DNA of 64,000 nucleotides from Candidatus Latescibacterota bacterium (GCA_965207885.1 OZ242311.1:2784001-2848000); one strand, 5' to 3'; shown: positions 38,913 through 58,102, counted from the stretch's first letter. Notes: generated by a model from the letters alone, not told the origin. Program-made: numbers and translations.

Positions 38913-38926
38913 AAAGGAGTATTATT

Positions 38927-39922: not shown

Positions 39923-39935
39923 AATGGAGGTTGTA

Positions 39936-40982: not shown

Positions 40983-40990
40983 GAGGCCGT

Positions 40991-41782: not shown

Positions 41783-41789
41783 GGAGAAG

Positions 41790-43142
41790 GTGACTATGGC
41801 AAATCACGAGTCACTTGAGGCAAAAGTCGATCGTGTATTCGCGGAATGGGACAAGCCAGATTCCCCTGGCGCGGCTCTGGCAATTATCAGAGATGGTGAG
41901 ATTATCTACAAACGCGGATACGGGATGGCGAATCTGGAATACGACATACCGATTGCGCCGACAACCATCTTCGACATTGCTTCGGTCTCCAAGCAATTTG
42001 CGGGCTTTGCCATCGCCACGTTGTTACACGAAGGGAAACTCGCGCTGGATGACGATATTCGGATGCACTTGCCCGATGTCCCGGATTTTGGAACAAAAAT
42101 AACGATTCGACATCTGGTGCATCACACGAGTGGATTGCGGGATTGGGTACAGGCACTCGTCATCGCGGGCGGAGAGATGGATGACGTGATTTCGTTTAAG
42201 CACATTCTGAAAATGGTAAGGCGTCAGAAAGAACTCAATTTCGAGCCTGGAGCAACGTTTTTATACTCAAATACGGGGTATAATCTGCTGGTAGAAATCG
42301 TTGAAAAAATAACGGGAGATTCATTTCGCGAATGGACGGACGCCAACATCTTTAAGCCCCTCGCCATGACCAGCACCCATTTTCACGATGACCACGAGAT
42401 GATCGTGAAGAACCGGGCGTATTCCTACTTGTCCGTGAAAGATGATGGGTTCAAGAATGCCGTGAACAATTTAACCGCTCTCGGTTCGAGTTCGCTCTAT
42501 TCAACAGTAGAAGATCTATCAAAGTGGATACTGAACTTTGACGATGCACAGATAGGCGGACAGGCAGTGGTTGGGCAGATGCATCAGCGAGGGGTTCTCA
42601 ATAATGGGAAACAGATCAGTTACGCCTTCGGATTGGACATCGGCGAGTACAGAGCACTGAAAACGGCCGGACACGGCGGATCATGGCGGGGATTTCGCAG
42701 CCATCTCATACGTTTTCCGGCTCAGAAATTTGGCATTGTCATATTGTGCAATCTGGAGACCTTCACCCCACTTAATCTGGCGAAAAAGATCGCTGATATC
42801 TATCTCGCTGATGTCCTCGCCCCCGAAGCACCCGAGCCGGATAAGCAACCCTCTGAACGCATCGAGCCTGACCCCCTGACACCAGAACAGTTGTCAGAAT
42901 TCGAAGGCGATTATTACACTGAAGAACTCGATACGACCTATACCATTGGTGTGCAAGGAGACCGGCTTGTGGCGCAACACAGGCGACATGACGACATATC
43001 CCTAACCTGTGCCGACGGTCATTTCGTCGGGGATGCGTGGTTTTTTCCAGAAGTTTATTTTACGCGAAACGATGCGGGACGAGTTACAGGGTTCAGGCTG
43101 ACAGGAAACCGGGTCAAAAACTTGCGTTTTAAAAAAAGATAA
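41790..43142 (+). CDS. Serine hydrolase, AmpC/D-aminopeptidase family
   Basis: SVSK, HHTSG, YSN, HGG. Confidence 0.85.
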   Translation: MTMANHESLEAKVDRVFAEWDKPDSPGAALAIIRDGEIIYKRGYGMANLEYDIPIAPTTIFDIASVSKQFAGFAIATLLHEGKLALDDDIRMHLPDVPDFGTKITIRHLVHHTSGLRDWVQALVIAGGEMDDVISFKHILKMVRRQKELNFEPGATFLYSNTGYNLLVEIVEKITGDSFREWTDANIFKPLAMTSTHFHDDHEMIVKNRAYSYLSVKDDGFKNAVNNLTALGSSSLYSTVEDLSKWILNFDDAQIGGQAVVGQMHQRGVLNNGKQISYAFGLDIGEYRALKTAGHGGSWRGFRSHLIRFPAQKFGIVILCNLETFTPLNLAKKIADIYLADVLAPEAPEPDKQPSERIEPDPLTPEQLSEFEGDYYTEELDTTYTIGVQGDRLVAQHRRHDDISLTCADGHFVGDAWFFPEVYFTRNDAGRVTGFRLTGNRVKNLRFKKR

Positions 43143-43150
43143 GAGTAACC

Positions 43151-44461
43151 ATGAACCGAATCCTATTGAAACTAATGCTGCTCGCTGTGCTTTTTCCCAT
43201 ATTTTCAGTTTTGGCCGATGAATGGCCGCAGTGGCGGGGACCACACCGGGACGGTGTTTGGAGCGAAACCGGGATATTGGAGGCATTTGACGGACCGGAG
43301 ATCCCGATTCGTTGGCGAGTGCCAATAGGCAGCGGCTATAGCGGCCCGAGCGTCGCTGACGGGCGCGTTTACGTTACTGACCGTCTCGCGAAACCGAAAC
43401 AGGTCGAACGCGTTCACTGTTTCGACTGGGAAACAGGTGAATCAATTTGGTCCTTCACCTACGATTGTGAATACCGAATTGACTATACCGCCGGGCCTCG
43501 AGCCAATGTTATCATTCATGACGGACTCGCTTACACCTTAGGGGCGATGGGGCATCTCCACTGCTTTGATGCTGCAACCGGCACGTTGAAGTGGAAAAAA
43601 GACCTCAACGCCGAATACAATATTGAGATGCCAACCTGGGGGATTGCGAGCGCGCCGATTGTCGAGGGTTCACACCTCATCGTACAAATCGGCGGCACGC
43701 CCGGAGCATGCATCGTCGCTTTCGATCGCGAAACCGGAGTCGAAAAATGGAAAGCCCTTGAAGACAACGCATCTTACTCAGCTCCAATTGTGATTACACA
43801 GGGTGGCGAGCGGGTGCTCGTCTGTTGGACAGGTAGAAATATCGCTGGGCTCAACCCGCAGACAGGCAGCATGCATTGGCGCCATCCATTTCCACCGACT
43901 CGCATGGAGATCGGGATCGCAAGTCCCGTTTTTTATCAAAATGAATTGTTTATCACCGATTTCTTTGAAGGCTCGCTGCTGCTGAAACTGAATCCAGATA
44001 AACCGATAATGCAATTCGGTTGGCACCGTAAGGGAAGAAATGAACGGAACACAGATGCGCTCCATTCCACGATGTCAACCCCGATCCGGCTCGGCGATTA
44101 CATTTACGGTGTGGATAGCTATGGGGAACTCCGCTGTCTCGACGCCCGCAACGGCGATCGGATTTGGGAAGACCTCACCGCGGTTCCGAAAGCGCGCTGG
44201 AGCAACATCCATTTTATCAAAAATGGCGATAAGGTCTGGATGTTCAATGAGCGCGGCGAACTCCTGATTACAACGCTTTCGCCGGACGGGCTGAATATCA
44301 TCAGCCGCGCGAAACTGATCGAACCGACGCGCGACCAGTTGAACCGAAGAGGTGGTGTCACGTGGGCACATCCTGCGTTTGCCTATAAACATGTGTTCGC
44401 CCGAAATGACAAAGAACTGGTTTGTGCCAGTTTGGCGAAAAGCGAAAACAGGAATGATTAA
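43151..44461 (+). CDS. Secreted PQQ-like beta-propeller protein
   Basis: Signal peptide, WPQWRGP, repeated TG..W blades, WAHP. Confidence 0.85.
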   Translation: MNRILLKLMLLAVLFPIFSVLADEWPQWRGPHRDGVWSETGILEAFDGPEIPIRWRVPIGSGYSGPSVADGRVYVTDRLAKPKQVERVHCFDWETGESIWSFTYDCEYRIDYTAGPRANVIIHDGLAYTLGAMGHLHCFDAATGTLKWKKDLNAEYNIEMPTWGIASAPIVEGSHLIVQIGGTPGACIVAFDRETGVEKWKALEDNASYSAPIVITQGGERVLVCWTGRNIAGLNPQTGSMHWRHPFPPTRMEIGIASPVFYQNELFITDFFEGSLLLKLNPDKPIMQFGWHRKGRNERNTDALHSTMSTPIRLGDYIYGVDSYGELRCLDARNGDRIWEDLTAVPKARWSNIHFIKNGDKVWMFNERGELLITTLSPDGLNIISRAKLIEPTRDQLNRRGGVTWAHPAFAYKHVFARNDKELVCASLAKSENRND

Positions 44462-45301
44462 ATGAGATACTACTTCCGTGAAAATATTCGGCGATACGAA
44501 ATCATGACGCGGATGAGTCTGGAGAATTGGGCAAAAAGGACGTATGGAGGCACGGACTTCCACGACTTTTCATCTCGCAACTTTCTCGAAGCGGCCTTGC
44601 CGAGGCTCCGGTTTGAGACACCGAATCCAACGGCTCTCGAACTTGGAACCGGTGTGGGCCCAGGCGCATTATTTCTGGCCGAGCGGGGTTACCAGGTCAC
44701 CGGTTACGACTTGATACCTGAAGCGATTCACACTGCCCGGGAAATAGCTACTCTTCGAGGTTTGTCCATTCAGTATGAGGTGATGGACGTAACCCAAATC
44801 CCGCACAATGGAAACCGGTTCGATTTGATCGTCGACAGCTACTGCATCAATCACATCGTATTTGTAGAAGAGCGCAGATCTGTCTTCGAAAGCGTCAAGG
44901 CGCGACTGAAGCCTGAGGGCTACTATCTCGTGAGTTCCTCGGTTTACGAGTCCTCCCGACATACTCCGGACATGAAAGTCATCGACAGATCAACTGGCCA
45001 AACCTATGACATCTATGACAACGACTGTCTTTACGATCCGTCAACAGATTACTACTACGAACCGCTCGAAAAATACCCGTCCGAACGGGAGCGGATCGAA
45101 GCGTGCGAGGACACAATTGTTGTGAATGGCAGGACCTACATTCCAAAGCGGTGTTATCGGGATTGGAGACGGCTCCAGGCCGAAGTCGGATCCTATGGAT
45201 TCGAGCCCATCTTTCGTCATGGCGAATATGGCGAGAGTTCGATCTTTATCCACAGAGGGAGTGGCGTCAACCTTGTTCCCTATGAAAGATATACCGTATA
45301 G
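44462..45301 (+). CDS. Class I SAM-dependent methyltransferase
   Basis: LELGTGVG, FDLIVD, LKPEG. Confidence 0.8.
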   Translation: MRYYFRENIRRYEIMTRMSLENWAKRTYGGTDFHDFSSRNFLEAALPRLRFETPNPTALELGTGVGPGALFLAERGYQVTGYDLIPEAIHTAREIATLRGLSIQYEVMDVTQIPHNGNRFDLIVDSYCINHIVFVEERRSVFESVKARLKPEGYYLVSSSVYESSRHTPDMKVIDRSTGQTYDIYDNDCLYDPSTDYYYEPLEKYPSERERIEACEDTIVVNGRTYIPKRCYRDWRRLQAEVGSYGFEPIFRHGEYGESSIFIHRGSGVNLVPYERYTV

Positions 45302-45415
45302 CCTGAGGCCGTGACCGATTCATTTGCTAATTGACAAAAACTGTGATACATTCGCACTATAGTTTCTGCACCCCTGAACATTGGGGAAAACAACGACAAC
45401 ACAGCGAGGTAAAAA

Positions 45416-46453
45416 ATGGCAGATAAAATTCGCATTGGCATCATTGGTGCGGGTGGTATTTTTCGGAGCCGACATTTTCCGGGACTGGCAAAAATTGACG
45501 ACGCCGAAGTCGTGGCAATATGCAACCGCAGCATAGAAAGCGGTGAAAAGGTAATAGCCGAACAGGGCTTATCAGCCGAAACCCTGACCGACCCACAGGC
45601 CCTGTTACACCGGGACGATATCGACGCGGTAATGATCGGCACCTGGCCGTACAAACACTGTGAATTCGTCCTCGCATCCTTAGACGCGGGCAAACACACC
45701 TTTGTACAGGCGCGCATGGCAATGAACTTGCGCGAAGCCCGATTGATGTATGCCAGAAGTCGAGAATCCAATCTCGTAACCCAAATTTGTCCAGCCCCCC
45801 CGTGGAAAGGCGGGCGTTTCTTGAGACGACTCATAGATGAAGGATATTTGGGCGATATTTTCCACGTATATGTCCGCGATCTGGGCGGGCGTTATTGGGA
45901 TATCGAAGAGCCATTGCACTGGCGGCAAATGCGCCGGTATTCCGGTCTGAATATCCTGGGAATGGGCATTACCGTCGAGCGCGTCGCACGCGTATTTGGC
46001 TATATGTCAACCATAACGGCAGAAACTGAAATTTTTACCAGAGAGCGACCTCTACCCGATGGGTCTGGCAATGGACCGGTTGAAACACCTGATATGGCAC
46101 ATATCATAGGCAAAATGGAAAATGGTGCGCGTGCGGCATTTCTGTTTTCGGGCGTCGCGCAATTTGGCGGAAGCTCCGTCATTGAAGCTTATGGCACTGA
46201 CGGCACATTGACCTACGACATGGGAACGCAAATCCGCGGTGCAAAAACGGGTGATCGACGACCGCAACAAATTCCCATCCCCGAAGATGAAGCCGCCGAA
46301 TGGACTGTCGAAGCCGATTTCATCAATGCCATCAAGGGTGGACCTCAGGGCGATACCAGCTTTTACGAAGGGATGAGATATATGGAATTTACCGAAGCGG
46401 TTCATCGCTCGGCAGAGCGCGGCGGAACCGTTCGATTGCCCCTGGTTGATTAG
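45416..46453 (+). CDS. Gfo/Idh/MocA oxidoreductase (paralog B)
   Basis: N-terminus nearly the same as 39936 paralog. Confidence 0.9.
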   Translation: MADKIRIGIIGAGGIFRSRHFPGLAKIDDAEVVAICNRSIESGEKVIAEQGLSAETLTDPQALLHRDDIDAVMIGTWPYKHCEFVLASLDAGKHTFVQARMAMNLREARLMYARSRESNLVTQICPAPPWKGGRFLRRLIDEGYLGDIFHVYVRDLGGRYWDIEEPLHWRQMRRYSGLNILGMGITVERVARVFGYMSTITAETEIFTRERPLPDGSGNGPVETPDMAHIIGKMENGARAAFLFSGVAQFGGSSVIEAYGTDGTLTYDMGTQIRGAKTGDRRPQQIPIPEDEAAEWTVEADFINAIKGGPQGDTSFYEGMRYMEFTEAVHRSAERGGTVRLPLVD

Positions 46454-47327
46454 AGGAGATGCCGTGATCAGACTTGTGGCATTTGATCTGGATGGAACGA
46501 TCTTAAATCACAACAACACCCCATCGGATGCTTCGATGGCGGCGATTTGCGATTTATTGGATCGCGGCGTAGCTGTAGCGTCTATGAGTGGGCGCAATTT
46601 CGAACGCAACCAAATTCCGTTTGTAAGCAACCCCAGCGTGGCCGACGCCCTCTATGCCGGATGTTATAATGGCGCAATGGTTTTTGCTCCCAAAATAAAT
46701 GGCACACGCCAACTCATGCACGAACAGCGTTTGCCCGATGACATATTCTTATCGCTGATCCAATATGCCGATGACCGGCTCATGAATTTTGTATATTGTC
46801 GCTGCGACATGAATAGCGAAGGCCCCTGCGAAGTCTATATCACCGACCGCATGACAAAAATGAGCCGCGCGGTAGCCACAATGACCAATATGGTCTATGA
46901 AGTCGATGCCGATCTCGCGCAGCGAGTACGCACAAAAGAATTGGCCTCGCCCCCCAAAATAATGCTCTTGCCCGAACCCGGGCATGCCGATGAAACAGTT
47001 GATGAATTAAAAAATATATTCGGCGATCAAATTTACATGGCCTGGGCCGTGGCGGGTCGCATCGAAATCATGCACCCGGATGTGAACAAAGGCGCGGCAC
47101 TCACAGCGATAGCCAACCACATTGGCGGCAACCTCGATGAGGTGATGGCCGTGGGCGATGGCAATAATGATCTGCCCATGTTGCGCGCAGCCGGAACCGG
47201 TGTATTGATGCACAACGCAGATGCAGCAACCCATCGCGCAGTGGCCGGGGAAAATATTCTACAAACCGACCACATTGAAAACGATGGATTTGCCAAAGCC
47301 GTGCGTCGATATGTGCTTGATAGGTAA
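46446..47327 (+). CDS. Cof-type HAD-IIB hydrolase
   Basis: FDLDGT, SGR, NKG, GDGNNDLPM. Confidence 0.9.
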   Translation: MIRGDAVIRLVAFDLDGTILNHNNTPSDASMAAICDLLDRGVAVASMSGRNFERNQIPFVSNPSVADALYAGCYNGAMVFAPKINGTRQLMHEQRLPDDIFLSLIQYADDRLMNFVYCRCDMNSEGPCEVYITDRMTKMSRAVATMTNMVYEVDADLAQRVRTKELASPPKIMLLPEPGHADETVDELKNIFGDQIYMAWAVAGRIEIMHPDVNKGAALTAIANHIGGNLDEVMAVGDGNNDLPMLRAAGTGVLMHNADAATHRAVAGENILQTDHIENDGFAKAVRRYVLDR

Positions 47328-47341
47328 GGGGAAGGATTCTC

Positions 47342-47971
47342 ATGGGACAGACATTAGACATAGGTCGGCGAATAGAATTGGTGCCAATGGATGTCCATTT
47401 TCACGACATCACAATTGGGCTATACCGGCAAGAAAACGCACAGGGCACGACTTTTCGCGTTCACACATACAGCCAGATAGACGGGGCACAAGCGCGTATT
47501 GACTCCGTGAACCATGCAATGCGCGTCCTGGGAGGCATGGAAGACACAGGCGAGGGATTATTGCGCTTTCCGTGTGGCGCCACACATCTGCTCTCTGTAA
47601 AACGACTATTCCTGGAAGCGTGTAAACTCGGCATGGATGACGACGTATCTATGCGTCCGTTGACCATCCTGGACAAAAAATCGGGATTGCACATTTCCGC
47701 AACGCCCCAATCTAATGGCGCATACAAAATCACGGCTGATAGCGATGAAAAAGGCGCAGACCGGCGCATTCGATTGGTGGCCGGAGGGCTTGCAAAACTG
47801 GGCGAACTGGAACAAGTGGAAGAAGACCAGGTGCGCTTTGATTGCGGCATGACACACGATCCCCTTATAGGTGTCCTACTCGTACGCGCCCCCAATGTGC
47901 GATCCGTCATGCGAGAATTGGAACAGGCTGCCAGCCGGGGCGTGCTCGCAGCCCCGAGCGCGCAAAATTAG
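47342..47971 (+). CDS. Hypothetical protein with internal duplication and two C-x3-H motifs
   Basis: RFPCGATH and RFDCGMTH; AAGGA RBS; operon position. Confidence 0.75.
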   Translation: MGQTLDIGRRIELVPMDVHFHDITIGLYRQENAQGTTFRVHTYSQIDGAQARIDSVNHAMRVLGGMEDTGEGLLRFPCGATHLLSVKRLFLEACKLGMDDDVSMRPLTILDKKSGLHISATPQSNGAYKITADSDEKGADRRIRLVAGGLAKLGELEQVEEDQVRFDCGMTHDPLIGVLLVRAPNVRSVMRELEQAASRGVLAAPSAQN

Positions 47972-47986
47972 GAACTGGAGTCACAT

Positions 47987-49039
47987 ATGAACGACCAGAC
48001 AACAAAACCAATGAAACCACGCGACCGCGTATTGGCCGCACTCAATCGGGCGCCTGTGGATCGCACACCGACCTGTAACCCGACTTCGGTTGCAACCGTA
48101 GAATTGATGGATCTCGTCGAGGCGCCATTTCCGCAGGCAAATCGCGAACCAGAACTCATGGCACGGCTGGCGGCAACGAGCTATACCGAACTCGGTTTTG
48201 ACACGATCATGCCCGTATTTACAATCATCCAGGAATCATCCGCACTCGGGTGCAAAATCCAGTGGGAACAAAAAGACAACTGGCCCACAGTGCAAATGAG
48301 AGAACCGATCTGGCACAAGGCAGATGATATTGAAATCCCATCGAACTTATTGACCCATCCCGATACAAAATGCGTGCTGGACGCGATTGGCATATTGCGA
48401 AAAGAATACGGCGATGAAGTGGCGATTATCGGCAAAACAATGGGACCCTGGTCTCTGGCGTATCACTGCTTTGGCGTAGAGGATTTTTTGCTCCTATCAT
48501 TGGACGACCCGGATCACACGCGGCAAATTCTGGACAAATTAAAAGAAGTAACCGTCGCATTTGGCGTAGCGCAAATTGAAGCGGGCGCCGACGCCCTGAC
48601 CCTGCCCGATCACGCAACGGGGGATCTGGTCAGCGGCGATTATTACGACCGGTATTTGCGCGAATTGCACATCGAATTTGCCGATCGCATACCCATTCCG
48701 CTAATTTTGCATATATGCGGACGCACCGTTGATCGGATGGAATACATCGCGCAAACGGGCATGGCGGCATTTCACTACGACTCCAAAAACGATCCAGATG
48801 AGTCAATCGATATTGTAAAGGAACGAATCGCGCTGGTCGGCAATATCAACAATCCGGAAACACTATTTTCAAAAGAGCCGGAAACCGTAAAAGAAGAAGT
48901 GTATAAAAACCTGAGTGCAGGAGTACATCTGGTGGGGCCTGAATGTGCGATTCCCTTGCAAACATCAATCGAAAATCTGAAAGAAATCCCAAAAGCAGTC
49001 GTGGATTGGCATGCGGAGGCAGAGAGCGTTAATGGCTGA
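47987..49039 (+). CDS. MtaA/CmuA-family (URO-D fold) corrinoid methyltransferase
   Basis: MGPWSLA, Zn motif LHICG...PEC, LVGNI. Confidence 0.85.
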   Translation: MNDQTTKPMKPRDRVLAALNRAPVDRTPTCNPTSVATVELMDLVEAPFPQANREPELMARLAATSYTELGFDTIMPVFTIIQESSALGCKIQWEQKDNWPTVQMREPIWHKADDIEIPSNLLTHPDTKCVLDAIGILRKEYGDEVAIIGKTMGPWSLAYHCFGVEDFLLLSLDDPDHTRQILDKLKEVTVAFGVAQIEAGADALTLPDHATGDLVSGDYYDRYLRELHIEFADRIPIPLILHICGRTVDRMEYIAQTGMAAFHYDSKNDPDESIDIVKERIALVGNINNPETLFSKEPETVKEEVYKNLSAGVHLVGPECAIPLQTSIENLKEIPKAVVDWHAEAESVNG

Positions 49040-49793
49040 ATTATCCGATGTTCAAAATGAGTTTATCAAAGAGGAAATAGAAGAATTTTTAGAACGCCCC
49101 GATGAGATACAACGCAATATCGATCTGTTCGCAAACGCGAGTCCCGAGATGCAGGCAATTGCCGCCGCATTGATCGATGGCGCGCATCACGATGTCGATC
49201 AATTGACGCGCGAAGCCCTGGATGCAGGCGTGGGTGCGCTGGAAATTATGGACGATGGGTTGATCGCTGGCATGGGCATTGTGGGAATTAAATTTCGAGA
49301 AAATTTTATTTTTGTACCCGAAGTCCTCGCGTGCGCCCGGGCAATGAAAGCGGGGATGGCGCATATTGAACCCATCTTGTCAGCCTCGGGCGTCGAGCCG
49401 GTAGGCACGGTCATTATGGGCACGGTGAAAGGCGATTTGCACGATATTGGCAAAAATTTGTGTATCATGATGTTGCGCGGCGCCGGGTTTGTCGTCCACG
49501 ACCTCGGCGTGGATACATCCGAAGACGAATTTATGGATGCCGTCGAAGAACACGAAGCCAAATTGCTCGGCATGTCCGCACTGTTGACCACGACAATGCC
49601 GAATATGGGCAAGACAATTGAAGCATTTATCGACGAAGACTTGCGCGACGATGTGAAAATCATGGTGGGCGGTGCCCCTGTGACACAGGAATTTGCCGAC
49701 GACATGGGGGCGGATGGATACGGTGAAAACGCCCTGGACTGCGTGGAACTGGCTGTACAATTGTTGAAGGAGTGGGAGGAGGAGAATGAGTGA
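49032..49793 (+). CDS. Corrinoid (B12-binding) methyl-carrier protein
   Basis: Cap domain FVPEVL; GDLHDIGKN, SALLTTT, VGGAP. Confidence 0.92.
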   Translation: MAELSDVQNEFIKEEIEEFLERPDEIQRNIDLFANASPEMQAIAAALIDGAHHDVDQLTREALDAGVGALEIMDDGLIAGMGIVGIKFRENFIFVPEVLACARAMKAGMAHIEPILSASGVEPVGTVIMGTVKGDLHDIGKNLCIMMLRGAGFVVHDLGVDTSEDEFMDAVEEHEAKLLGMSALLTTTMPNMGKTIEAFIDEDLRDDVKIMVGGAPVTQEFADDMGADGYGENALDCVELAVQLLKEWEEENE

Positions 49794-51714
49794 GCGTGAA
49801 AAAATAGATCGAGAAGCCTATCAAAAGCGGCTGGACCGCATGTCTGAAATTTTTTCAGATATTGTCCAGCATGCCGACGAACAGGCGCAAATGCGCTGTC
49901 CCTACAAAAACAAGGACAACGAGTGCACCGCCAAATTTGGCTGTAAATTCCAGCGAAAACCAGCGCCCAACCGGGCGCTTTTTCAATGTGCCAGCAACGA
50001 TAACCTCGACTATCGCACGGCCTGGGAAACAGAGCCAGATGCCTATCGTGAGATGAAGACCGCGCTCAAAGCCCAAAAAGGTCGTCGCCGAAAAAAGGGA
50101 ACGGGCACAATTACACACATGGGCAAGGTGCAACAACTCGAAGCGCGAAAGACTATATTTGATTATGCCGATGATCTGGCCGTTCAGGTTCCAACATCGT
50201 GTTTTCGGTCGGGAATATGCCATGAATGCGTGGTAGAAATTGCAAAAGGTGAAGAGAGCCTGTGCCCCAAAACCGAAGCTGAAGCCTTCTTAAAAGATAA
50301 TTACCGACTGGCCTGTCAGGCCGAAGTAGTAGATTTAGATGCAGAAGTTGAATTTGTGCCCCTGCGCCGCGAACCTCAAATTTTGACCTTGAGCCAAGAA
50401 AAGGAAATTGATCGTGATCCCGTGGTAATGCGCCGTGGCGATCGGGTATTCTACGACGGAGAAGACATCGATCGCTTTCGGGGACACATCTACGGACTGG
50501 CAATTGATGTGGGCACCACGACAATTGTGATGGATCTCGTAGATCTGGAATCTGGCGAAAGTATTGCGATTGCATCTTATGAAAATCCCCAGCGCTTTGG
50601 CGGCAGCGATATCATGTATCGCATTTCCTATGATGGCGAATATCCAAATGAGTTGTGGAAGGCACTGGTAAATGCGATCAACCACGAAATTCTCGTGCTA
50701 TGTGAAAAATTGGGTTTTGAGCGACAAGAAATTTACGAAATTGTCGTCGCTGGCAATGCCACCATGCGGGATATGTTCTTCAGGCTCGATGTGCAGAGTA
50801 TTGGACAAAAGCCCTATAAATCTCAAATAGAACACGAATATCTGACCGGAAAACGCAAAACAACCGCCCTTTATGAAAGCAGCAGGCGGTTGGGCATTCG
50901 GGCAAATCCCAAAGCGCGGGTATATGGCATGCCCCTTATTGCAAGCCATGTGGGCGGCGATGTCGCAGCGGATATGCTGGCCGTGGAAATGGGTAACCAA
51001 GACGAGATATTCATGCTCGTCGATGTAGGCACCAATACCGAAGTCGTAGTGGGCAACCGAGACAGGTTGGTGGCAGCTTCTTGTCCGGCGGGACCCGCAT
51101 TTGAAGGCGGCGGTATCGCCTGTGGCATGCCCGGACAAGATGGGGCGATCGAATCGATGGCGTGGGAAAATGGCCAGTTCAATTACCGCGTAATCGGCAA
51201 CGGCGCGCCCCAGGGGTTGTGCGGCTCTGGACTGATCGATTTGTTGGCCGAACTTCGGCGGCATGATTTGATGACAGAAAAGGGCGTATTTTCCGACCGC
51301 AAGCAATATGAAATGATTGTAGTGCCCGAACACGGCATTGCGCTATCGCGCGAAGATGCGAGCAATCTGGCTCAGGCCAAGGCCGCAAATTACTGTGGGC
51401 AGTTACTTGTCATGCGCGAATTTGGCATCACACCCGACCAGATCCATCGACTTTATCTATCTGGCGGATTTGCCAATTACGTCAATGTGCAAAATGCGAT
51501 TGACATCGGTTTTCTCGCACCCGTGCCAAAAGAGCGCATCGAAAAGGTGGGAAATGCCGCGATATTGGGCGCGAGAACAACCCTTCTCTCGCGGAAACGA
51601 CGCGATGAGTTAGAACGTCTGGTAAAACGAATTGAACATGTAGAACTGGAGACAAAGCCAGACTTTTTTGACGTATTTGTCGAAGGATGCCAATTTAAGA
51701 GGATGACGGTATGA
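49786..51714 (+). CDS. RACo/RamA-type ASKHA reductive activator of corrinoids (DUF4445) with [2Fe-2S]
   Basis: CFRSGICHEC...RLACQ, DVGTTT, DVGTNTE, AGPAFEG, GLCGSG, GNAA. Confidence 0.9.
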   Translation: MSEREKIDREAYQKRLDRMSEIFSDIVQHADEQAQMRCPYKNKDNECTAKFGCKFQRKPAPNRALFQCASNDNLDYRTAWETEPDAYREMKTALKAQKGRRRKKGTGTITHMGKVQQLEARKTIFDYADDLAVQVPTSCFRSGICHECVVEIAKGEESLCPKTEAEAFLKDNYRLACQAEVVDLDAEVEFVPLRREPQILTLSQEKEIDRDPVVMRRGDRVFYDGEDIDRFRGHIYGLAIDVGTTTIVMDLVDLESGESIAIASYENPQRFGGSDIMYRISYDGEYPNELWKALVNAINHEILVLCEKLGFERQEIYEIVVAGNATMRDMFFRLDVQSIGQKPYKSQIEHEYLTGKRKTTALYESSRRLGIRANPKARVYGMPLIASHVGGDVAADMLAVEMGNQDEIFMLVDVGTNTEVVVGNRDRLVAASCPAGPAFEGGGIACGMPGQDGAIESMAWENGQFNYRVIGNGAPQGLCGSGLIDLLAELRRHDLMTEKGVFSDRKQYEMIVVPEHGIALSREDASNLAQAKAANYCGQLLVMREFGITPDQIHRLYLSGGFANYVNVQNAIDIGFLAPVPKERIEKVGNAAILGARTTLLSRKRRDELERLVKRIEHVELETKPDFFDVFVEGCQFKRMTV

Positions 51715-52709
51715 AGTCTTTTGCAGAACGCCTCGCAGATGACCAGCCAATGGTGTATGACGGCGGATTTGGGTCTCAATTATTTGCACACGGGGTAAAC
51801 CTGGCAAACAGTTCCATCGCCAATCTATCGCATCCCAAAGAGGTTGTAGCAGTACATCGCGCGTATATCGATGCGGGCGCAAACGCCATTGGCACAAACA
51901 CATTTGTGGTATCCCCCCTGCATCTCGAGATGGCCGATGCCGATGAGGATGATGCCGAGCACTTGACAGAATTAGCTGTCCAACACGCGCGGCAAGCCGT
52001 TGAAGAAAGCGGGAAGGATGTTTATGTGGGTGGCTCCATCGGTCCCTCCCCCGGTGCTATCGAAGCCGATGCTGGCGATACGGTTTTTGGCATTCCCAAT
52101 GTAGATGTGCGATCAGCCCACGAGCGCGTGATCTCTGCCATGGTCAAAGGCGGTGTCGATTTTTTTGTCATAGAAACGCAGTTTTCCGCCAAAGAAGCGG
52201 CAATCGCCGTTGACATTGCACGACAGACAGGCTTGCCCATCGCCGTGAATATGACGTATAAATTCACAAAGGATCGCAAAACGGGCGAATTGATCTATCG
52301 CACGGACTGGGGGGTTTCACCCAGCGACCTACTGGACATTTTGGCAAGTGGCGATTTTTCAAACGGCGATAATCTGCTCGGCGACGTGCAACTCCTGGGC
52401 CTGAACTGCGGCGCTGAAACGCGCAATACAGATCACACGGGCATGCCCTATGCAATTGAGGGCACAGTGCAGATGCAAAAAGCGCTTGTGGATCGCGGCA
52501 TTGAAAACAAGCGATTGATGGCCTATCCCAATGCGGGCTTACCCACCCTGGACAAAGTCACCAAACAGGCGTCGTATTCACAAGGCCCAGAAGACATGGC
52601 CCAACACGTCGAAGACTTGTTGGACGCCGGTGGATTCTTGATAGGCGGATGTTGCGGCACAACGCCCGATCACATTCGAGCATTTCGCAATATCGTAGAT
52701 GCACAATAG
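51711..52709 (+). CDS. Stand-alone homocysteine S-methyltransferase domain protein
   Basis: DGGFGS, AGA...TNTF, IET, GLNCG, YPNAGLP, GGCCGTTP. Confidence 0.9.
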   Translation: MKSFAERLADDQPMVYDGGFGSQLFAHGVNLANSSIANLSHPKEVVAVHRAYIDAGANAIGTNTFVVSPLHLEMADADEDDAEHLTELAVQHARQAVEESGKDVYVGGSIGPSPGAIEADAGDTVFGIPNVDVRSAHERVISAMVKGGVDFFVIETQFSAKEAAIAVDIARQTGLPIAVNMTYKFTKDRKTGELIYRTDWGVSPSDLLDILASGDFSNGDNLLGDVQLLGLNCGAETRNTDHTGMPYAIEGTVQMQKALVDRGIENKRLMAYPNAGLPTLDKVTKQASYSQGPEDMAQHVEDLLDAGGFLIGGCCGTTPDHIRAFRNIVDAQ

Positions 52710-52752
52710 AGGCTCTTGTATTTTTTCACCGATTAAACTTGAGGTTTGAATT

Positions 52753-53760
52753 ATGGCTGATTATTGGGACGACGATATAGAAGACATCGAGGTCGAGGAT
52801 ATGTTTGTAGGTGCTCTACTGGGCGGCGCAATAGGCGATGCCCTGGGCTGTTTTTGCGAGGGATGGGACCGGGATCGGATCAAAGCGGTAGAAGGCTTGA
52901 CAGACCACTATCGAGGTCGAGTCAACCGGGAAGGCGTATTGACCCGACCGGCTGGAGAATATACAGACGATACCCAGCAGACCCTCGTTCTCGTTGAGTC
53001 AATTATAGCGTGCGAAAAGGTCGATCCCGAAGATCTGAGCAATCGATTTTTGGCGATGTGGCGCGAGGGGCTCCTGCAAATGTATGGCAGGGCTTTTAAG
53101 GAGACTCTGGAACGCCTCGATCAGGGCCTGGCGTGGTCCGAAGCCGCATCGAAAGACCACCCCTCCAACGGGGCGGTCATGAAAATCGCGCCAGTGGGCT
53201 TGTGGCACTGGGCAACCGGTGAAAATATCCTGGACGATGCAATTGCAGCGAGCCATGTGACACACCAGGACCCACGCGCGGTTGCACCTGCAGTCGCAAT
53301 GGCCCATGTGGTGGGGCATCTGGTAACACATCGCCCGCTGGACGGAAGTGAGGTGCTGGACGTAGCCGAGTGGTCGGCCAGGCCGATTTGCGAATCCACA
53401 GGCGAGTTGATCGCACAGGTGGGGACATTGCTGACAATGAACGAGGAAGATGCGTGGGCGGCCATGGTAAAGATGCCCGAAGCTGCGCGAGAAAAGGCCA
53501 TTCCAAGCGAAGCCCAGGCCACAATTGTCGTGGCTTTGGAGGCATTTTTGCGCGCAGAAGGCGAATTTATCCCCACTGTCGAACGCGCCCTACTCACGGG
53601 TGGAGATGTAGATACATTTGCAGCCATTGCCGGCACATTGAGCGGTTTGTATCACGGCACAGCGGGTTTGCCGCAACATCTCGTAGAGACACTGGTTGAA
53701 CGCACAGAAATCGAATCACTATCCCGCGAGCTTTATGAAAAAACAGGAGGCGCCCTGTGA
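52753..53760 (+). CDS. ADP-ribosylglycohydrolase family
   Basis: GDALG, YTDDT, SNGAVM, GGDVDT. Confidence 0.9.
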   Translation: MADYWDDDIEDIEVEDMFVGALLGGAIGDALGCFCEGWDRDRIKAVEGLTDHYRGRVNREGVLTRPAGEYTDDTQQTLVLVESIIACEKVDPEDLSNRFLAMWREGLLQMYGRAFKETLERLDQGLAWSEAASKDHPSNGAVMKIAPVGLWHWATGENILDDAIAASHVTHQDPRAVAPAVAMAHVVGHLVTHRPLDGSEVLDVAEWSARPICESTGELIAQVGTLLTMNEEDAWAAMVKMPEAAREKAIPSEAQATIVVALEAFLRAEGEFIPTVERALLTGGDVDTFAAIAGTLSGLYHGTAGLPQHLVETLVERTEIESLSRELYEKTGGAL

Positions 53761-54647
53761 TACTCGACGGTTTTAAGGGCATGTATCCCGCACTGGTCAG
53801 CCCCAGAGATGGGGCGGGTGCATTTAGCGTCTCGGCGTACGAAAAACTCATGGCGCGTATTTACGAACAGGGATCACACGGCGTGTATGTAGCGGGCAAT
53901 ACGGGCGAAGGCTATTTGATGACAATGGCCGAGCGCAAGTTGGCCACAGAGATTGCCGTCAAAGCATCAAAAGGACATGGCCGAGTCGTAGTACACGTTG
54001 GTGCCCCCTCTGAGCGCGATGCGGTTGAACTCGCCAAACACGCAGCAAATGCAGGATCCGATGGCATTTCGAGTTTGCCCCCTTATGTCCAGGGGTATCG
54101 TTTTGACGACATATTGGCGTATTACAGCGCGCTGAGTTCTGCGGCAAACTTGCCGGTCTTTGTGTATTACATCCCGGTGGTCACGCATCAGGAATATTCG
54201 TTTGAACAAATCAACCAGATGCTCGCACTCGAAGGCGTGGTGGGCATTAAATTCACAAATTTCAACCTGTTCTTAATGGAACGCATACTCAATGGACCAC
54301 ATAAACCGCATATTTTTAATGGACATGACGAAGTAGCCCTATCGGGCATTGCGGTAGGTGCTCAGGGGGGAATCGGCACATTTTACAATGTGATGCCCGC
54401 GCATTTTGTGGGCATTTACGAAGCGGTGAACAAGTGCGATCTGGACACGGCACGCACATTGCAAGCAGACGTGAATGAACTAATTCGGATTTGTCAAAAA
54501 TACAGTGGACACGGCAGCGTACGCGCCGTATTGCGCTGGCAGGGAATCGAGTGCGGCGATCCCGTCAAGCCTACACGTCCGCTCGACGAGGAAGGAGAGA
54601 AAGCATTGCGAAAAGAGATCGAAGCAGCGGCATTGGATGTGTTCTAA
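53757..54647 (+). CDS. DapA/NanA-family aldolase (N-acetylneuraminate lyase-like)
   Basis: GNTGE, YYIP, Schiff-base KFT, GGIGTFYN. Confidence 0.8.
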   Translation: MILDGFKGMYPALVSPRDGAGAFSVSAYEKLMARIYEQGSHGVYVAGNTGEGYLMTMAERKLATEIAVKASKGHGRVVVHVGAPSERDAVELAKHAANAGSDGISSLPPYVQGYRFDDILAYYSALSSAANLPVFVYYIPVVTHQEYSFEQINQMLALEGVVGIKFTNFNLFLMERILNGPHKPHIFNGHDEVALSGIAVGAQGGIGTFYNVMPAHFVGIYEAVNKCDLDTARTLQADVNELIRICQKYSGHGSVRAVLRWQGIECGDPVKPTRPLDEEGEKALRKEIEAAALDVF

Positions 54648-55327
54648 TCACCTCTCACAATCTCATACACTGTCGCCCCTTCCCGCTCGGTTATAGTGGA
54701 AAACGCCCAGCCCGCATTGCACAAACGATCAAAAAAAGGTCTGCCCAAGATGCGATTGGGTTCAGAAAATAAAACGCGCCCTCCCGGTGCGAGAAGGGCG
54801 TCGAATGTGGCGATAAGAGGATCGAAAAAACGCGGTTCGTACACGAGATCTGCACCCAACAAGGTGGCATAGTGTTGATCCTGCGGTGGAGAACGCCAGT
54901 CGATGAGCATTGTCCTGGGAACAATGCCCGCAATTTGCAACCCGTTGAGTTGCGCAAACTTGAGTGCATCGGGCTGGTAATCCGTGGCCGTGACACGCGC
55001 GCGTTTGAGACAGGCAATAGATGAGACAAGGCCCAATCCACAGCCGAGTTCAAGCACGGATTCGCCCGGCGCGATCAGATTATCCGCGAGCAGAACATCG
55101 GACAAAACAAGCGCAGAATCCCAAAGCGTTGCCCAATAAGGCAGGCGTTCGTCCCGCACCTCAAAGCTATCGGGATCAGCCATTCCCAGTTTGTCAAAGA
55201 GTGCTTCGGCATCTTCAACACACGTCACACCTATTTTACGCCCACAAATATTGTGGTGTTCTTCGCCGAGTTGATAGCGCGCGGCGAGTTCGCGTTTGAG
55301 GGCGTAAATTTCTTTTTGTACGCTCAT
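54644..55327 (-). CDS. Methyltransf_16-like protein methyltransferase
   Basis: LPYWATLWDS, LELGCGLG, ADLVYE. Confidence 0.8.
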   Translation of the reverse strand: MSVQKEIYALKRELAARYQLGEEHHNICGRKIGVTCVEDAEALFDKLGMADPDSFEVRDERLPYWATLWDSALVLSDVLLADNLIAPGESVLELGCGLGLVSSIACLKRARVTATDYQPDALKFAQLNGLQIAGIVPRTMLIDWRSPPQDQHYATLLGADLVYEPRFFDPLIATFDALLAPGGRVLFSEPNRILGRPFFDRLCNAGWAFSTITEREGATVYEIVRGD

Positions 55328-55346
55328 TAGAAGGGACGGAGCCTAC

Positions 55347-56108
55347 CTACTGATACGCTTCCCACAACGCCTTGTAATATCGCAGCAGACGCTCGGCATC
55401 TGTACTGCCAGAGATTTCGGCCAGCGTATATCCCGCATAGCCTTCGGCATTGAGGAGCGAGAAGAGTTCGCGCCATGGATAGGCCGGATTGCACAATTCA
55501 TTGATGTGTACCAGACCGATTTTGTGTTTGAGCAGGTCAAAATTGGCTTTGATAGAACCGTCTTCCACTTCGCCCAAATTCGAGTTCCAGCATACCTTTG
55601 CACTGTCGTGATCTGCCCAATCCATGATGGTGCGCATATGCGCTGGCTCTTGCGTTTCTCGCCCGTGTACTTCCAACCGGATTTGCACTCCCAGATCAGC
55701 AGCGGCAATCGCGCATTCGCGCACGGATTTGCCAATTTGTTCGAGTGTTTGATCCACCGAAATACCTTTGTCGGTTTGCAGGCCATTGGGCCGCACCTTA
55801 ACGCCCGGGCAACCCAGGTCGGCGGCGAGTTTGGCGTATTCAATCGTGCCATCAATATTTTCGCGCACAGCGCCGGGATCATCCGAATGGTATTCAAATG
55901 CCGAGCCCAAACCCGCGATTTCGACACCGCCATCTTCAAATTTTTTGCGGATATCCTGCCTTTGTCCCGCCGAAAGGTCTGATTCAACGCCATGAGCATG
56001 CGTGGTGCGCAGTTCGGCACCGCTATAACCGAGTTCGGAACAGGTTTCGATAATAGTGTCAACATCCCAGTCCGCGGCGATTTGATACGTGACAATACCC
56101 AACTTCAT
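55347..56108 (-). CDS. Sugar phosphate isomerase/epimerase
   Basis: ELRTTHAHGVE, LEVHG, VHINE. Confidence 0.8.
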   Translation of the reverse strand: MKLGIVTYQIAADWDVDTIIETCSELGYSGAELRTTHAHGVESDLSAGQRQDIRKKFEDGGVEIAGLGSAFEYHSDDPGAVRENIDGTIEYAKLAADLGCPGVKVRPNGLQTDKGISVDQTLEQIGKSVRECAIAAADLGVQIRLEVHGRETQEPAHMRTIMDWADHDSAKVCWNSNLGEVEDGSIKANFDLLKHKIGLVHINELCNPAYPWRELFSLLNAEGYAGYTLAEISGSTDAERLLRYYKALWEAYQ

Positions 56109-56339
56109 TTTTATCTCCCAATTGGTAGCTCTCAGCCGCTATCGGTCGGCAAAACAAAGGGCCAAAAGCTGAAAGTGGATGAACTTGTAGTTGCCGACCG
56201 CATCTGAAGATAGGACTTGCACTGAGAATGTCAATGCCTTTGAAGTATCTCCCATAAGACATACAAAATAACTTGACGCCCATCAAACATTTCTACATAT
56301 CTACACAGGTACAAACCGCTATTCGCAGGAGTATTTGAG

Positions 56340-56801
56340 ATGCATATTCAGCGTGCCGAGACGCGCGATTTTTTGGAAATCGCAAAATTAGATCGCGAAG
56401 CATGGGCACAAAACCGAAATTCTGAGTACATTCCCGATGGCGAGCACGTCTGGCGATTGTGGACAGAGCACGCACTGGTATTTTGTGCAAGAGAAGGCGA
56501 AAAACTAATCGGTGCTGTGCTGGCATTTCCCACGAGGACGGATAGGCTGTATTGTCTGCACAAAGTATTTGTGGATCATCCCTTTCGCGGCAAAGGCATT
56601 GGTTCCGCTTTGTTCGACGCGATTTTGGCCGCCTGCGATCAAATCGGTGTGGATTGTTTTTTGACAGTAGATCCTGAAAATGAAAGTGCTATTTCCCTGT
56701 ACGAAAAATGGGGATTTAGCGAGAAAAACTTTGTGAAAGGTTATTATCGCGCCTCAGAAGACCGGTATGTACTGACGCGACGCTGCAAAACAAAGACCTG
56801 A
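56340..56801 (+). CDS. GNAT acetyltransferase
   Basis: RGKGIG, N..AISLYEKWGF. Confidence 0.88.
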   Translation: MHIQRAETRDFLEIAKLDREAWAQNRNSEYIPDGEHVWRLWTEHALVFCAREGEKLIGAVLAFPTRTDRLYCLHKVFVDHPFRGKGIGSALFDAILAACDQIGVDCFLTVDPENESAISLYEKWGFSEKNFVKGYYRASEDRYVLTRRCKTKT

Positions 56802-56817
56802 GATAAGGAGCCAAACA

Positions 56818-57663
56818 ATGCACCCCAAATGTCTCGATTATTGTCTGACAGAAGAAGAAGCACGCAAATTTAAACGGGATGGCTACTTCATCGTTCCGGA
56901 TGCCCTACCACCCGACATGGTCAGCGATCTCGTCGTCGCAGTAGATCGCGTAGATAAAGAAGAACGCGCTCGAATGGGCAAAAACGCCACAGCGCGCATC
57001 AACCACTACGACTTCATAGGCAAGGACGACCGCTTCTTGCCCTTGCTCGACTGGTACAAAACATTTCCCAGAGTGTGGGGTATTCTGGGCTGGCACATCC
57101 AGCTCTACCACACCCACATGACCGTGACACCCCCTGCAGAACCGCACAAAACACTCGAAAAAGACGGACCCGGTCTCGGCTTCCACCAGGACAGCGGCCG
57201 CATCAATCAGGATTTCGACATGAATCCGCGTCCCATGATCTCACTCAAAATCGGCTTTTTTCTCACTGATACAACTGAACCGGGCCGCGGCAATTTCTAC
57301 GTCCTTCCCAAGAGCCAAACGCAAAACACATTTCCCGGAGAAGATCGCCAGGCGCTGCACAAAGACGCTATCCCGGTGCTCGTACCACCCGGATCAGCCG
57401 TATTTTTCGATCGCCGCTTATGGCACTCCGCCAGTACCAACTACTGGAAGGAACCCCGCCGCGTACTCTTCTACGGCTACTCCTACCGCTGGCTTCGCCC
57501 CCGCGACGACATGCGCGTAGAACACTACCTCGACCGCTGCACGCCCATCCAAAAACAACTCCTCGGCGTCAGCTACTCCGGCGGTCGAGGCTACACCTCC
57601 CCCACACCCGAAGACGCGCCCCTCAAAACCTGGCTCGACGAACACGGGATCAGCAGTGAATAG
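56818..57663 (+). CDS. PhyH-family Fe(II)/2OG dioxygenase
   Basis: HQD, FFDRRLWH, RRVLFYGY. Confidence 0.88.
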   Translation: MHPKCLDYCLTEEEARKFKRDGYFIVPDALPPDMVSDLVVAVDRVDKEERARMGKNATARINHYDFIGKDDRFLPLLDWYKTFPRVWGILGWHIQLYHTHMTVTPPAEPHKTLEKDGPGLGFHQDSGRINQDFDMNPRPMISLKIGFFLTDTTEPGRGNFYVLPKSQTQNTFPGEDRQALHKDAIPVLVPPGSAVFFDRRLWHSASTNYWKEPRRVLFYGYSYRWLRPRDDMRVEHYLDRCTPIQKQLLGVSYSGGRGYTSPTPEDAPLKTWLDEHGISSE

Positions 57664-57809
57664 TCACTAAAAATTTTATCTGTATTCCTGCTCTACCGCC
57701 TACCCTTATCTGTCTTGGCGAGGCAATTGACTTTTTTCTTTTTATACGATACTTTCCTGAGTGAACTGGCTGGGCAACGCATCCTCGATGCCGGGCACAT
57801 CGCGCCGTT

Positions 57810-57865
57810 ATTGAAATATTATTCATAGGACATCGTTAAATTGGAGTCTAAGCGATATGGACAAT
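57810..57865 (+). repeat. 56-bp leader/start repeat, second copy at 59224-59279
   Basis: ATTGAAATATTATTCAT...GGAGTCTAAGCGATATGGACAAT; 4 mismatches by hand count. Confidence 0.85.
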
Positions 57866-58102
57866 GGAAATTATCGAGGCAGGATTGCGGTTGATCCCCA
57901 AATTCATTTTGGTAAGCCTTGTGTTGCAGGAACCCGGATCCCCGTGGTTGATGTTCTCGAATTGGTGCGTGAGGGAATCTCGTTTAAGACGATCCTCTCT
58001 GATTATTTTCCCGACCTTCAAGAAGACGACATTCGCGCTTGCATCCATTATGCGATTAATTTAGTGCAGGTCGAAGATATTCATATTTCAGAGGTGAGAT
58101 AG
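57857..58102 (+). CDS. DUF433 antitoxin-like protein (no partner toxin)
   Basis: DPQIHFGKPCVAGTRIPV...DIRACIHYA. Confidence 0.88.
   Translation: MDNGNYRGRIAVDPQIHFGKPCVAGTRIPVVDVLELVREGISFKTILSDYFPDLQEDDIRACIHYAINLVQVEDIHISEVR

Follow-up and report, generated by a model that had tools for sequence, protein, structure and literature searches.

Corrinoid-dependent methyl relays were long viewed as a trait of anaerobes. In 2025, however, aerobic marine bacteria were found to connect the breakdown of betaine with methionine synthesis by such a relay. According to Mausz et al. (2025; PMC12478193), the corrinoid protein of Ruegeria pomeroyi is the hub, as shown genetically; MtgB (MttB family) loads it from glycine betaine, the pterin-binding MtgD passes the methyl group to or from folate, MetF2 oxidises methyl-tetrahydrofolate (methyl-THF), and MtgE (PF02574) makes methionine. 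The set of MtgBCDE, MetF2, RamA and DUF1638 is reported there to have homologues in Sinorhizobium and marine Proteobacteria. In this report, a five-gene operon was analysed in a 64,000-nucleotide stretch of the genome of a sponge-associated Candidatus Latescibacterota bacterium (OZ242311.1:2784001-2848000; this whole stretch is hereafter the window, and positions are those of the whole window). The operon, at positions 47342-52709, encodes an orphan protein (gene 1, designated unk209), an MtaA-like methyltransferase (gene 2), a corrinoid protein (gene 3), an activase (gene 4) and a homocysteine methyltransferase (gene 5), and is probably a corrinoid methyl relay that follows the hub logic of MtgBCDE and of split MetH with a different donor module, carrying a methyl group from a methyl-S or methyl-Se donor to homocysteine.

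Two further systems are close to the operon. The three-part MetH of Phaeobacter inhibens depends, as shown genetically, on a Fer2-DUF4445 (RamA-like) protein and on DUF1638 (Price et al. 2018; PMC5764234). For the type 1 mlp clusters, the preprint of Kountz and Balskus argues for methyl-S and methyl-Se substrates from a His-Cys-Cys site, from gene context and from one assay, and gives the proportion of carrier species that encode selenocysteine machinery as 87% (PMC10418091). The original prediction for the window had presented the module as a novelty standing by itself; with MtgBCDE (PMC12478193) and the type 1 mlp clusters (PMC10418091), at least as these sources describe them, precedents exist. 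What is new is an uncharacterised donor module on a known corrinoid hub, in which a zinc enzyme of the MtaA type is tied to an orphan protein. For Latescibacterota, Poribacteria and sponge symbionts, the literature gave no account of this pair or of a homocysteine hub with an MtaA-like donor enzyme, supplements aside (such genomes may be listed in Dataset S2 of PMC12478193 or in the supplementary tables of PMC10418091); PMC9999580, as far as that text goes, only mentions MttB homologues.

Organization of the operon and its products

Five co-oriented open reading frames (ORFs) fill the operon, as judged from ORF calls and translations (Table 1). Genes 1 and 2 are separated by 15 bases, and overlaps of 29, 8 and 4 bases follow between genes 2 and 3, 3 and 4, and 4 and 5, respectively; an ATG at 49032 may be an alternative start of gene 3. 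Purine-rich Shine-Dalgarno-like stretches precede both gene 1 and gene 2. The gene content and order, the tight packing and the overlap of the last four genes, all noted in the original prediction, were borne out by the ORFs and by Pfam and NCBIfam matches, and its motifs were found in the translations, LHICG...GPEC (zinc motif) in gene 2, DLHDIG (DxHxxG) in gene 3, and LNCG and GGCCG in gene 5.

Table 1. Coordinates of the operon genes and of neighbouring features in the window
Feature	Position	Strand	Family or evidence
Gene 1, unk209, orphan 209-residue protein with internal tandem repeat	47342..47971	+	no Pfam or NCBIfam family
Gene 2, MtaA/CmuA-family zinc methyltransferase, URO-D fold	47987..49039	+	Pfam URO-D 1.2e-64
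Gene 3, corrinoid carrier protein	49011..49793	+	B12-binding_2 + B12-binding; DxHxxG
Gene 4, RACo/RamA-type ATP-dependent reductive activase	49786..51714	+	Fer2 + Raco_middle + RACo_C_ter
Cys-rich N-terminal extension of gene 4, about 85 residues	49786-50040		no Pfam domain
Gene 5, stand-alone homocysteine S-methyltransferase, PF02574	51711..52709	+	S-methyl_trans 1.3e-51
Beta-lactamase-family gene pair, then PQQ_2 beta-propeller gene	40979-44461		PF13354 (class A-like, 267 residues); PF00144 (450 residues); PQQ_2
S-adenosylmethionine (SAM)-dependent methyltransferase gene	44462-45301		Methyltransf_25/11
ADP-ribosylglycohydrolase-family and DHDPS/NanA-like genes	52753-54647		
PhyH dioxygenase gene	56818-57663		Pfam

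The product of gene 2 passed two curated NCBIfam cut-offs, TIGR01463 for MtaA/CmuA (257 versus 235.4 bits) and PRK06252 (264.6 versus 244), and stayed under the equivalog cut-offs for MtaA (NF040654, 239.5 versus 400) and MtbA (NF041608, 202.7 versus 600). Within its zinc motif, H242-x-C244 and C320 align with residues of Methanosarcina mazei MtaA (PDB 4ay7), to which gene 2 is about 32% identical over 326 aligned residues, as counted on the printed alignment. H242, C244 and C320 are invariant in 30 gene 2 sequences and make up a predicted zinc site. Gene 2 is unusually conserved, with a mean column identity of 85% across phyla (30 sequences), against 71% for unk209 and 77% for the homocysteine enzyme. 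Gene 2 is the sole MtaA-like gene of the genome, the other URO-D match being HemE-like (425 bits). Natural fusions of an MtaA-like with a corrinoid domain were found in three proteins of 619-634 residues, 74-77% identical to gene 2. A tblastn search of 72,556 plasmid records with gene 2 gave 10 records, all at 24-27% identity; the annotated ones belong to the HemE/UroD family and none is CmuA.

The family of unk209 is compact and well conserved. Relatives numbered 989 at E <= 0.001 among 1470 candidates, and 273 representatives passed the same threshold in a larger set of 1.84 billion; nearly all have about 210 residues. The AlphaFold2 (AF2) model of unk209 (pLDDT 86.1, pTM 0.83) predicts two similar alpha/beta repeats, each of the order beta-beta-beta-alpha-beta-alpha. 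A Cys-x3-His motif stands at the start of the long helix in each repeat, and its residues, C78, H82, C168 and H172, are invariant in 30 sequences. Foldseek against PDB gave 0 matches at E <= 0.001, the wide VIA-align search gave a best Z of 7.4 over half of the protein, within the stated background of the tool, and the ESM Atlas gave no usable match; together these fold searches do not show a new fold. Remote members of the family carry no Pfam domain, nor does one longer protein of 509 residues, 45% identical to unk209 and without similarity to MtaA. A 345-residue representative that joins an N-terminal part of unk209 to an N-terminal part of URO-D was taken as a likely gene-call artefact. 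Presumably the orphan protein serves the methyltransferase on the donor side as a subunit or an accessory protein, and the two may form a physical complex.

Gene 3, the only stand-alone corrinoid protein of the genome, has its best NCBIfam match in the MtgC-type family NF047996 (195 bits, under the cut-off of 370). In gene 4, likewise the only RACo_C_ter match of the genome, all three domains exceed their Pfam cut-offs, and the AcsV score of 316.5 bits is under the cut-off of 800. Besides its 2Fe-2S ferredoxin domain, gene 4 carries the Cys-rich N-terminal extension, which in a related locus has a counterpart of about 100 residues, encoded by its own ORF (L057:10536-10844, 60% identity). In 14 of 80 related loci (see below), a member of this Cys-rich ORF family stands as a separate gene between those for the corrinoid protein and RACo, and the module may thus have the segment or ORF as another conserved part. 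Gene 5 falls under the cut-off of every NCBIfam equivalog, the best match being the N-terminal half of the YitJ-type PRK08645 (172 bits), and reaches 126 bits against a cut-off of 338 for the Bmt-type NF005718. All of 16 sequences compared keep its DGG, NTF and ET motifs together with C233 and C314-C315.

Four RNA-library runs of a single study, labelled as sponge metagenome, yielded contigs that match parts of each of the five genes (95-99% identity) and span the gene 2/3 and gene 4/5 junctions. Such contigs may hold DNA and do not show a single transcript, and the stretches that they leave uncovered carry no weight; they are no more than a hint that the operon of a close relative is expressed in a sponge.

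Proposed entry and exit of the methyl group

The genome is a single contig of 6.23 Mb, 97% complete, with nearest relatives titled as Candidatus Latescibacterota metagenome-assembled genomes. Throughout this contig Pterin_bind gave two matches only, MetH and a frame of 307 residues whose score (276 bits) and length are FolP-like, and Met_synt_B12 matched inside MetH only. No stand-alone pterin-binding methyltransferase, no MTTB (PF06253) match and no DUF1638 were detected in the genome; MtaB (PF12176) was not searched for. The lack of a folate partner, reported in the original prediction for the window, extends to the whole genome except for MetH and the FolP-like frame.

Of the methionine genes that had been named there for a genome-wide check, metH and metF were found. 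MetH is complete, one frame of 1222 residues with homocysteine, pterin, B12 and SAM-reactivation modules, and a single MetF-like frame of 298 residues lies away from the operon. For MetE, only weak matches of the core-MetE-like kind were obtained; two weak Meth_synt_2 matches, in frames of 528 and 367 residues (G000:C1:981346-982401 and 2143846-2144793, G000 being the genome of the window), could be relatives of the folate-independent "core" methionine synthases. A third PF02574 gene of 372 residues (G000:C1 about 3944833-3945951, corresponding to L005:1354-2472), 25% identical to gene 5, adjoins a gene for a DAO-family FAD oxidoreductase, a BHMT-like context. A COX1 haem-copper oxidase is also encoded, from which the organism respires oxygen, and of the O2-dependent dioxygenases of the original prediction a PhyH gene was found in the window.

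Because both MetH and MetF are present, the relay must be auxiliary and not the methionine synthase of the cell. The modular methionine synthase that had been proposed from the sequence of the window holds in so far as this genome has a folate-less corrinoid route to methionine, and fails as the synthase on which the cell would depend. Homocysteine methylation by a methyl-corrinoid is the exit reaction of MetH-type chemistry. With this reaction as the exit, and with the MtaA-like enzyme, the corrinoid protein and RACo each encoded once and neither a stand-alone pterin methyltransferase nor MttB in the genome, the pair of unk209 and the MtaA-like enzyme is the only candidate entry; the corrinoid protein has only two methyltransferases, so that the pair must be the entry or the relay would be left without a source.

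In the proposed mechanism, the RACo-type activase would hold the corrinoid protein as Co(I) by use of ATP and its own 2Fe-2S domain. The MtaA-type zinc enzyme and unk209 would then take a methyl group from a small methylated compound to give the CH3-Co(III)-corrinoid protein, from which the stand-alone homocysteine methyltransferase would pass the methyl group to homocysteine, forming methionine. The leaving atom is expected to be soft, most likely that of a thioether or thiol, or of a selenoether or selenol, and dimethyl sulfide, methanethiol, methylmercaptopropionate, dimethyl selenide and methaneselenol may serve as examples of candidate donors. In related lineages, the same core might instead, or in addition, unload to tetrahydrofolate via a pterin-binding methyltransferase and a reductase of the methylenetetrahydrofolate reductase (MTHFR) type. 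With an ordinary MetH in the genome, what the cell gains from the relay is probably not a bulk supply of methionine but the demethylated product or the harvested methyl group, as in salvage or detoxification of sulfide or selenide. The direction of flow, the identity of the donor and the physiological role given here are those that we infer.

A thiolate or selenolate leaving group is argued from the invariant soft zinc site, for which MtsA provides a precedent; by analogy, two-way chemistry of the MtsA kind is proposed for gene 2. The SdmB-type enzymes are a further precedent (PMC11097638, PMC10418091), and in the UroD superfamily the His-Cys-Cys site is described as the mark of S/Se-methyltransferases, the cysteines being replaced in O-demethylases (PMC10418091). 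By this last argument an O-demethylase acting on a methoxy donor is less likely, since both zinc cysteines are kept, and a methylamine or betaine donor is unlikely with no MttB gene in the genome.

Conservation of the locus

A scan of contigs from one genome per species matched 348 stretches, of which 311 encode a relative. The best 80 of these 311 were taken as the locus set with 8 kb kept on each side; some loci are cut short, and the counts are therefore lower bounds. By their titles the 80 loci come from Latescibacterota, Poribacteria, three Gemmatimonadota, one Opitutales and unclassified bacteria. Genes within 8 kb were counted by tblastn at >=50% coverage, and locus classes were assigned at >=40% coverage. 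An MtaA-like gene lies directly downstream of unk209 in 80/80 loci, so that the "unknown protein" of the original prediction is no bystander but an obligate neighbour of the MtaA-like gene. Of the rest of the five-gene set, whose synteny had been singled out for a search, the corrinoid protein was present in 67, RACo in 65 and the homocysteine enzyme in 42 of the 80 loci. Also present were a divergent GntR/FCD regulator (31/80), a small PF13769 protein (23/80), an MTHFR+DUF5981 reductase (19/80), a pterin-binding methyltransferase (17/80) and PhyH (15/80).

When sorted by class, 32 of the 80 loci contain the corrinoid protein, RACo and the homocysteine enzyme with no folate genes; folate genes (pterin-binding and/or MTHFR) occur in 22, of which 10 also have the homocysteine enzyme; 11 have the corrinoid protein and RACo only, 2 the corrinoid protein only, and in 13 the pair is alone. 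A pterin-binding subunit in homologous clusters had been named beforehand as a finding that would speak against a folate-less module, and the loci divide on this point, with the 22 folate-gene loci on one side and the 32 homocysteine-only loci on the other. Five Poribacteria genomes that have the pair apart each carry exactly one RACo elsewhere, in four of the five within a cluster of corrinoid protein, RACo, MTHFR, pterin-binding and PF13769 genes. From these four genomes and the 22 loci with folate genes, the family as a whole is not folate-independent.

Among 20 other homocysteine-only genomes, 18 have only FolP-like and MetH-length matches to Pterin_bind; of the remaining two, one has an extra weak match of 367 residues and the other only a weak match of 350 residues. 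In a tree of the concatenated pair, the homocysteine-only arrangement makes up two separate supported clades, one of 20 rows that include the window (SH-aLRT 99) and one in which 13 of 14 rows have it (support 96). At least two changes of arrangement are forced on this tree, which is midpoint-rooted, and no direction of change is claimed. The homocysteine enzyme was found at three positions, directly downstream of RACo, about 4-5 kb downstream, and directly upstream of the pair, and its nearness to the core at three positions in different lineages argues for selection for linkage.

Clustering of all ORFs of the 80 loci gave no further conserved neighbour family, and several apparent "families" were antisense ORFs of the real genes, including a 616-residue ORF of locus L046. 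The small PF13769 ("Virulence_fact") protein accompanies a homocysteine or pterin-binding gene (L052:13748-14026, L027 at about 13713, L049 at about 7628) and is absent from the genome of the window by tblastn. In some Poribacteria loci an HNH endonuclease gene and an ORF of 123 residues lie between the MtaA-like and corrinoid genes (L040:9751-10533).

Co-occurrence with selenium genes

Carriers of unk209 (E <= 1e-10) were compared with non-carriers for the presence of SelA (E <= 1e-60); as a yardstick, 2 of 14 named control genomes had a match to the SelA model. SelA is encoded in all 26 cluster-bearing genomes (G000-G025), in one of them in two pieces. Among 168 genomes of the own phylum it was found in 124/125 carriers and 7/43 non-carriers, and when these were counted by genus in 28/28 carriers and 5/21 non-carriers. 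A sample of 81 Opitutales genomes gave 3/5 carriers and 1/76 non-carriers, and 33 genomes of a third order gave 31/31 and 1/2, respectively. In the own phylum, the lone carrier that lacks SelA is a genome of 80% completeness, and its SelD contains an in-frame TGA. Three genera of the own phylum that lie within carrier-rich families lack both traits; of the two non-carriers in the third order, one has a weaker SelA match and the other lacks both traits. SelD of the genome of the window (G000:C1:5699275-5700198) contains one in-frame TGA, which points to selenocysteine decoding in this organism and to SelD as one of its selenoproteins.

The association of unk209 with SelA is read as real but confounded; it raises methylated selenium, which the original prediction had not considered, to a serious donor candidate and does not establish it. 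A specific form of this proposal is offered tentatively, as a possibility well short of probable: the pair of the MtaA-like enzyme and unk209 may act, in an aerobic lineage, as a demethylase of selenium compounds such as dimethyl selenide or methaneselenol that frees selenide for selenoproteins and sends the methyl group to homocysteine or folate, with unk209 as a new metal- or selenium-handling subunit. If this is true, bacteria of several phyla in sponges and seawater recycle volatile organoselenium via vitamin B12.

Alternative explanations

The donor might be a methyl halide (CH3Cl, CH3Br or CH3I), used by the same relay in the same direction as by CmuA/CmuB of aerobic methylotrophs; the original prediction had named a halomethane first, ahead of a methyl sulfide. 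Methyl halides are, by established chemistry, thermodynamically good donors; gene 2 belongs to the MtaA/CmuA family, its fused relatives have the architecture of CmuA, and the related clusters with a pterin-binding methyltransferase and MTHFR resemble cmuB/metF2. In the analysis of Mausz et al., MtgC-type corrinoid proteins also group near CmuA (PMC12478193). This donor is nevertheless unlikely: CdmB, the only halide-specific methyltransferase I of the UroD type with a structure, is described as zinc-free (PMC13222342), whereas His-Cys-Cys is invariant here, and a halide gives the co-occurrence with SelA no obvious reason. A reversed assignment, in which the pair is the exit and methylates a thiol or selenol, or sulfide or selenide, from the methyl-corrinoid with a methyl group from methyl-THF, as a biosynthetic or detoxifying branch on a split MetH, agrees with the established behaviour of characterised MtaA and MtbA in methanogens, with the MTHFR and/or pterin-binding genes of 22/80 loci as a possible supply of methyl-THF, and with the methylating direction in which ClMlp2 was assayed (PMC10418091). 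It is likewise improbable, as the genome of the window and 18 of 20 similar genomes have no stand-alone pterin-binding methyltransferase, which would leave the corrinoid protein donorless, the homocysteine enzyme cannot plausibly run backwards from methionine, and the homocysteine-only arrangement is stable in two clades.

That the MtaA-like barrel and unk209 replace the folate barrel of a split MetH, with methyl-THF or another pterin as the donor, and so form a second, RACo-reactivated methionine synthase, is very unlikely. The operon does hold every module of MetH but the folate barrel, and some methyltransferases of the UroD superfamily are said to use pterins; yet a complete MetH is already encoded, the pair would be redundant in the many related clusters that combine it with a genuine pterin-binding enzyme, and the soft His-Cys-Cys zinc site would have no role in methyl transfer from a pterin (by the argument of PMC10418091). 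There is hardly any likelihood that the five genes have no common function, gene 5 being for example a corrinoid-free enzyme of the MmuM/BHMT type that depends on S-methylmethionine or betaine. PF02574 includes corrinoid-independent enzymes, gene 5 scores under every NCBIfam equivalog cut-off, and it is missing within 8 kb in 38/80 loci; but it overlaps the RACo gene by 4 bases, adjoins the core at three positions across lineages, and has a separate BHMT-like counterpart with a DAO-family neighbour elsewhere in the genome.

The relay from a methyl-S or methyl-Se donor to homocysteine is the reading that we favour, and several observations weigh against it. In the 22 loci with folate genes, methyl-THF could be the source and the MtaA-like enzyme an exit. 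Across the 80 loci, neither a transporter nor a catabolic gene specific to one substrate is conserved next to the core. The most remote relatives of unk209 (24-31% identity) have lost its Cys/His motif. SelA and SelD were found in 0/80 loci, 0/5 extra loci and not in the window, and two of the five Opitutales carriers lack both SelA and SelD. The carriers are kin and come mostly from similar host-associated sources, so that the co-occurrence may reflect ancestry or habitat. The RNA-library contigs may contain DNA and are no proof of transcription. The direction and the donor are predictions drawn from sequence.

Regulatory signals and neighbouring genes

An Rfam scan of positions 38000-58000 gave zero matches at E <= 0.1, and thus no B12 or SAM riboswitch, and promoter-like sites were not above shuffled sequence (10 seen, 12.9 +/- 3.5 expected). 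Upstream of the operon, the beta-lactamase-family and PQQ_2 genes share its co-oriented run. The SAM-dependent methyltransferase gene that follows them is present in 1/80 related loci (L013), and the RNA-library contigs of three of the four runs jump from 44461 to 45309 with 11 other letters between, omitting this gene, which is a strain-variable insertion upstream of the operon. On the downstream side, the ADP-ribosylglycohydrolase-family and DHDPS/NanA-like genes come after a gap of 43 bases, overlap by 4 bases and are kept in the closest relatives only (15/80 and 13/80 loci, respectively).

Comparison with known corrinoid systems

Among genomes taken one per species, the donor module turns up in at least 311 places and in several phyla. 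Were its donor a methyl-S or methyl-Se compound, the module would be an unrecognised sink for volatile sulfur and selenium species in marine host-associated communities and a folate-independent way to methionine. As the five proteins are small, soluble and assayable, the role of bacterial MtaA homologues outside methanogens, a gap of long standing, becomes directly testable.

The gene 2 product is similar to MtaA, MtbA and MtsA of Methanosarcina in its identity to the 4ay7 protein, in its zinc ligands and in its score above the TIGR01463 cut-off, but differs from them as a bacterial protein under the MtaA and MtbA equivalog cut-offs, for which the use of coenzyme M is not expected. As in CmuA/CmuB and in CdmBCA of Acetobacterium dehalogenans (PMC13222342, as far as described there), a donor methyltransferase of the UroD fold would load a corrinoid; CmuA-like fused methyltransferase-corrinoid relatives of gene 2 exist, and related loci have a pterin enzyme and MTHFR downstream. 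Unlike in CmuA, the methyltransferase and corrinoid domains are on separate genes, and no CmuB-type enzyme is encoded in the genome, such a partner being present in 17/80 related loci; the predicted zinc site is a difference from CdmB, which is reported to be zinc-free (PMC13222342).

With the type 1 mlp clusters and SdmABC of Methanococcus, as described in PMC10418091 and PMC11097638, the operon shares a His-Cys-Cys MtaA-like protein, a corrinoid protein and an activase of the bacterial Ram/RACE type. Like the operon, the mlp clusters are described as lacking an H4folate methyltransferase gene and as co-occurring strongly with selenocysteine machinery, and methyl recycling towards methionine has been proposed for them (PMC10418091). 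They differ in having at least two paralogues (Mlp2 and Mlp3), against one MtaA-like gene in the whole genome here, and in being reported from obligate anaerobes only, against a haem-copper oxidase in the genome and PhyH genes in and near the cluster here; by their description they contain neither unk209 nor a PF02574 gene (PMC10418091).

The split MetH of P. inhibens is similar with respect to the separate PF02574 and corrinoid proteins and to Fer2 plus DUF4445 reactivation in place of the SAM-dependent MetH domain, but is different in that here the pterin-binding part is missing and the MtaA-like enzyme and unk209 stand instead. MetH itself joins its modules in one chain, whereas the operon spreads them over several proteins and has no pterin or SAM-reactivation module. 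In its hub logic the operon is like MtgBCDE, in which, as in this operon, an aerobic bacterium has one corrinoid hub served by separate methyltransferases, a stand-alone PF02574 homocysteine exit and a Fer2 plus DUF4445 activase. The second exit of MtgBCDE, a pterin-binding enzyme with a second MTHFR, is found here in related loci only. In contrast to MtgBCDE, the donor enzyme is of the MtaA zinc type with an orphan partner and not of the MttB family (PF06253 being absent), an MtgD-type pterin enzyme, MetF2 and DUF1638 are not encoded in this genome, and MetH is present, so that methionine prototrophy does not depend on the hub. With scores under the MtgC and Bmt-type NCBIfam cut-offs, respectively, the corrinoid protein and the homocysteine enzyme also differ, and gene 5 is the same module as MtgE, not a shown orthologue. 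Taken together, the operon is the MtgBCDE hub with its donor enzyme swapped for an enzyme of the mlp kind and an orphan partner, and with a folate branch that is retained in some lineages and absent here.

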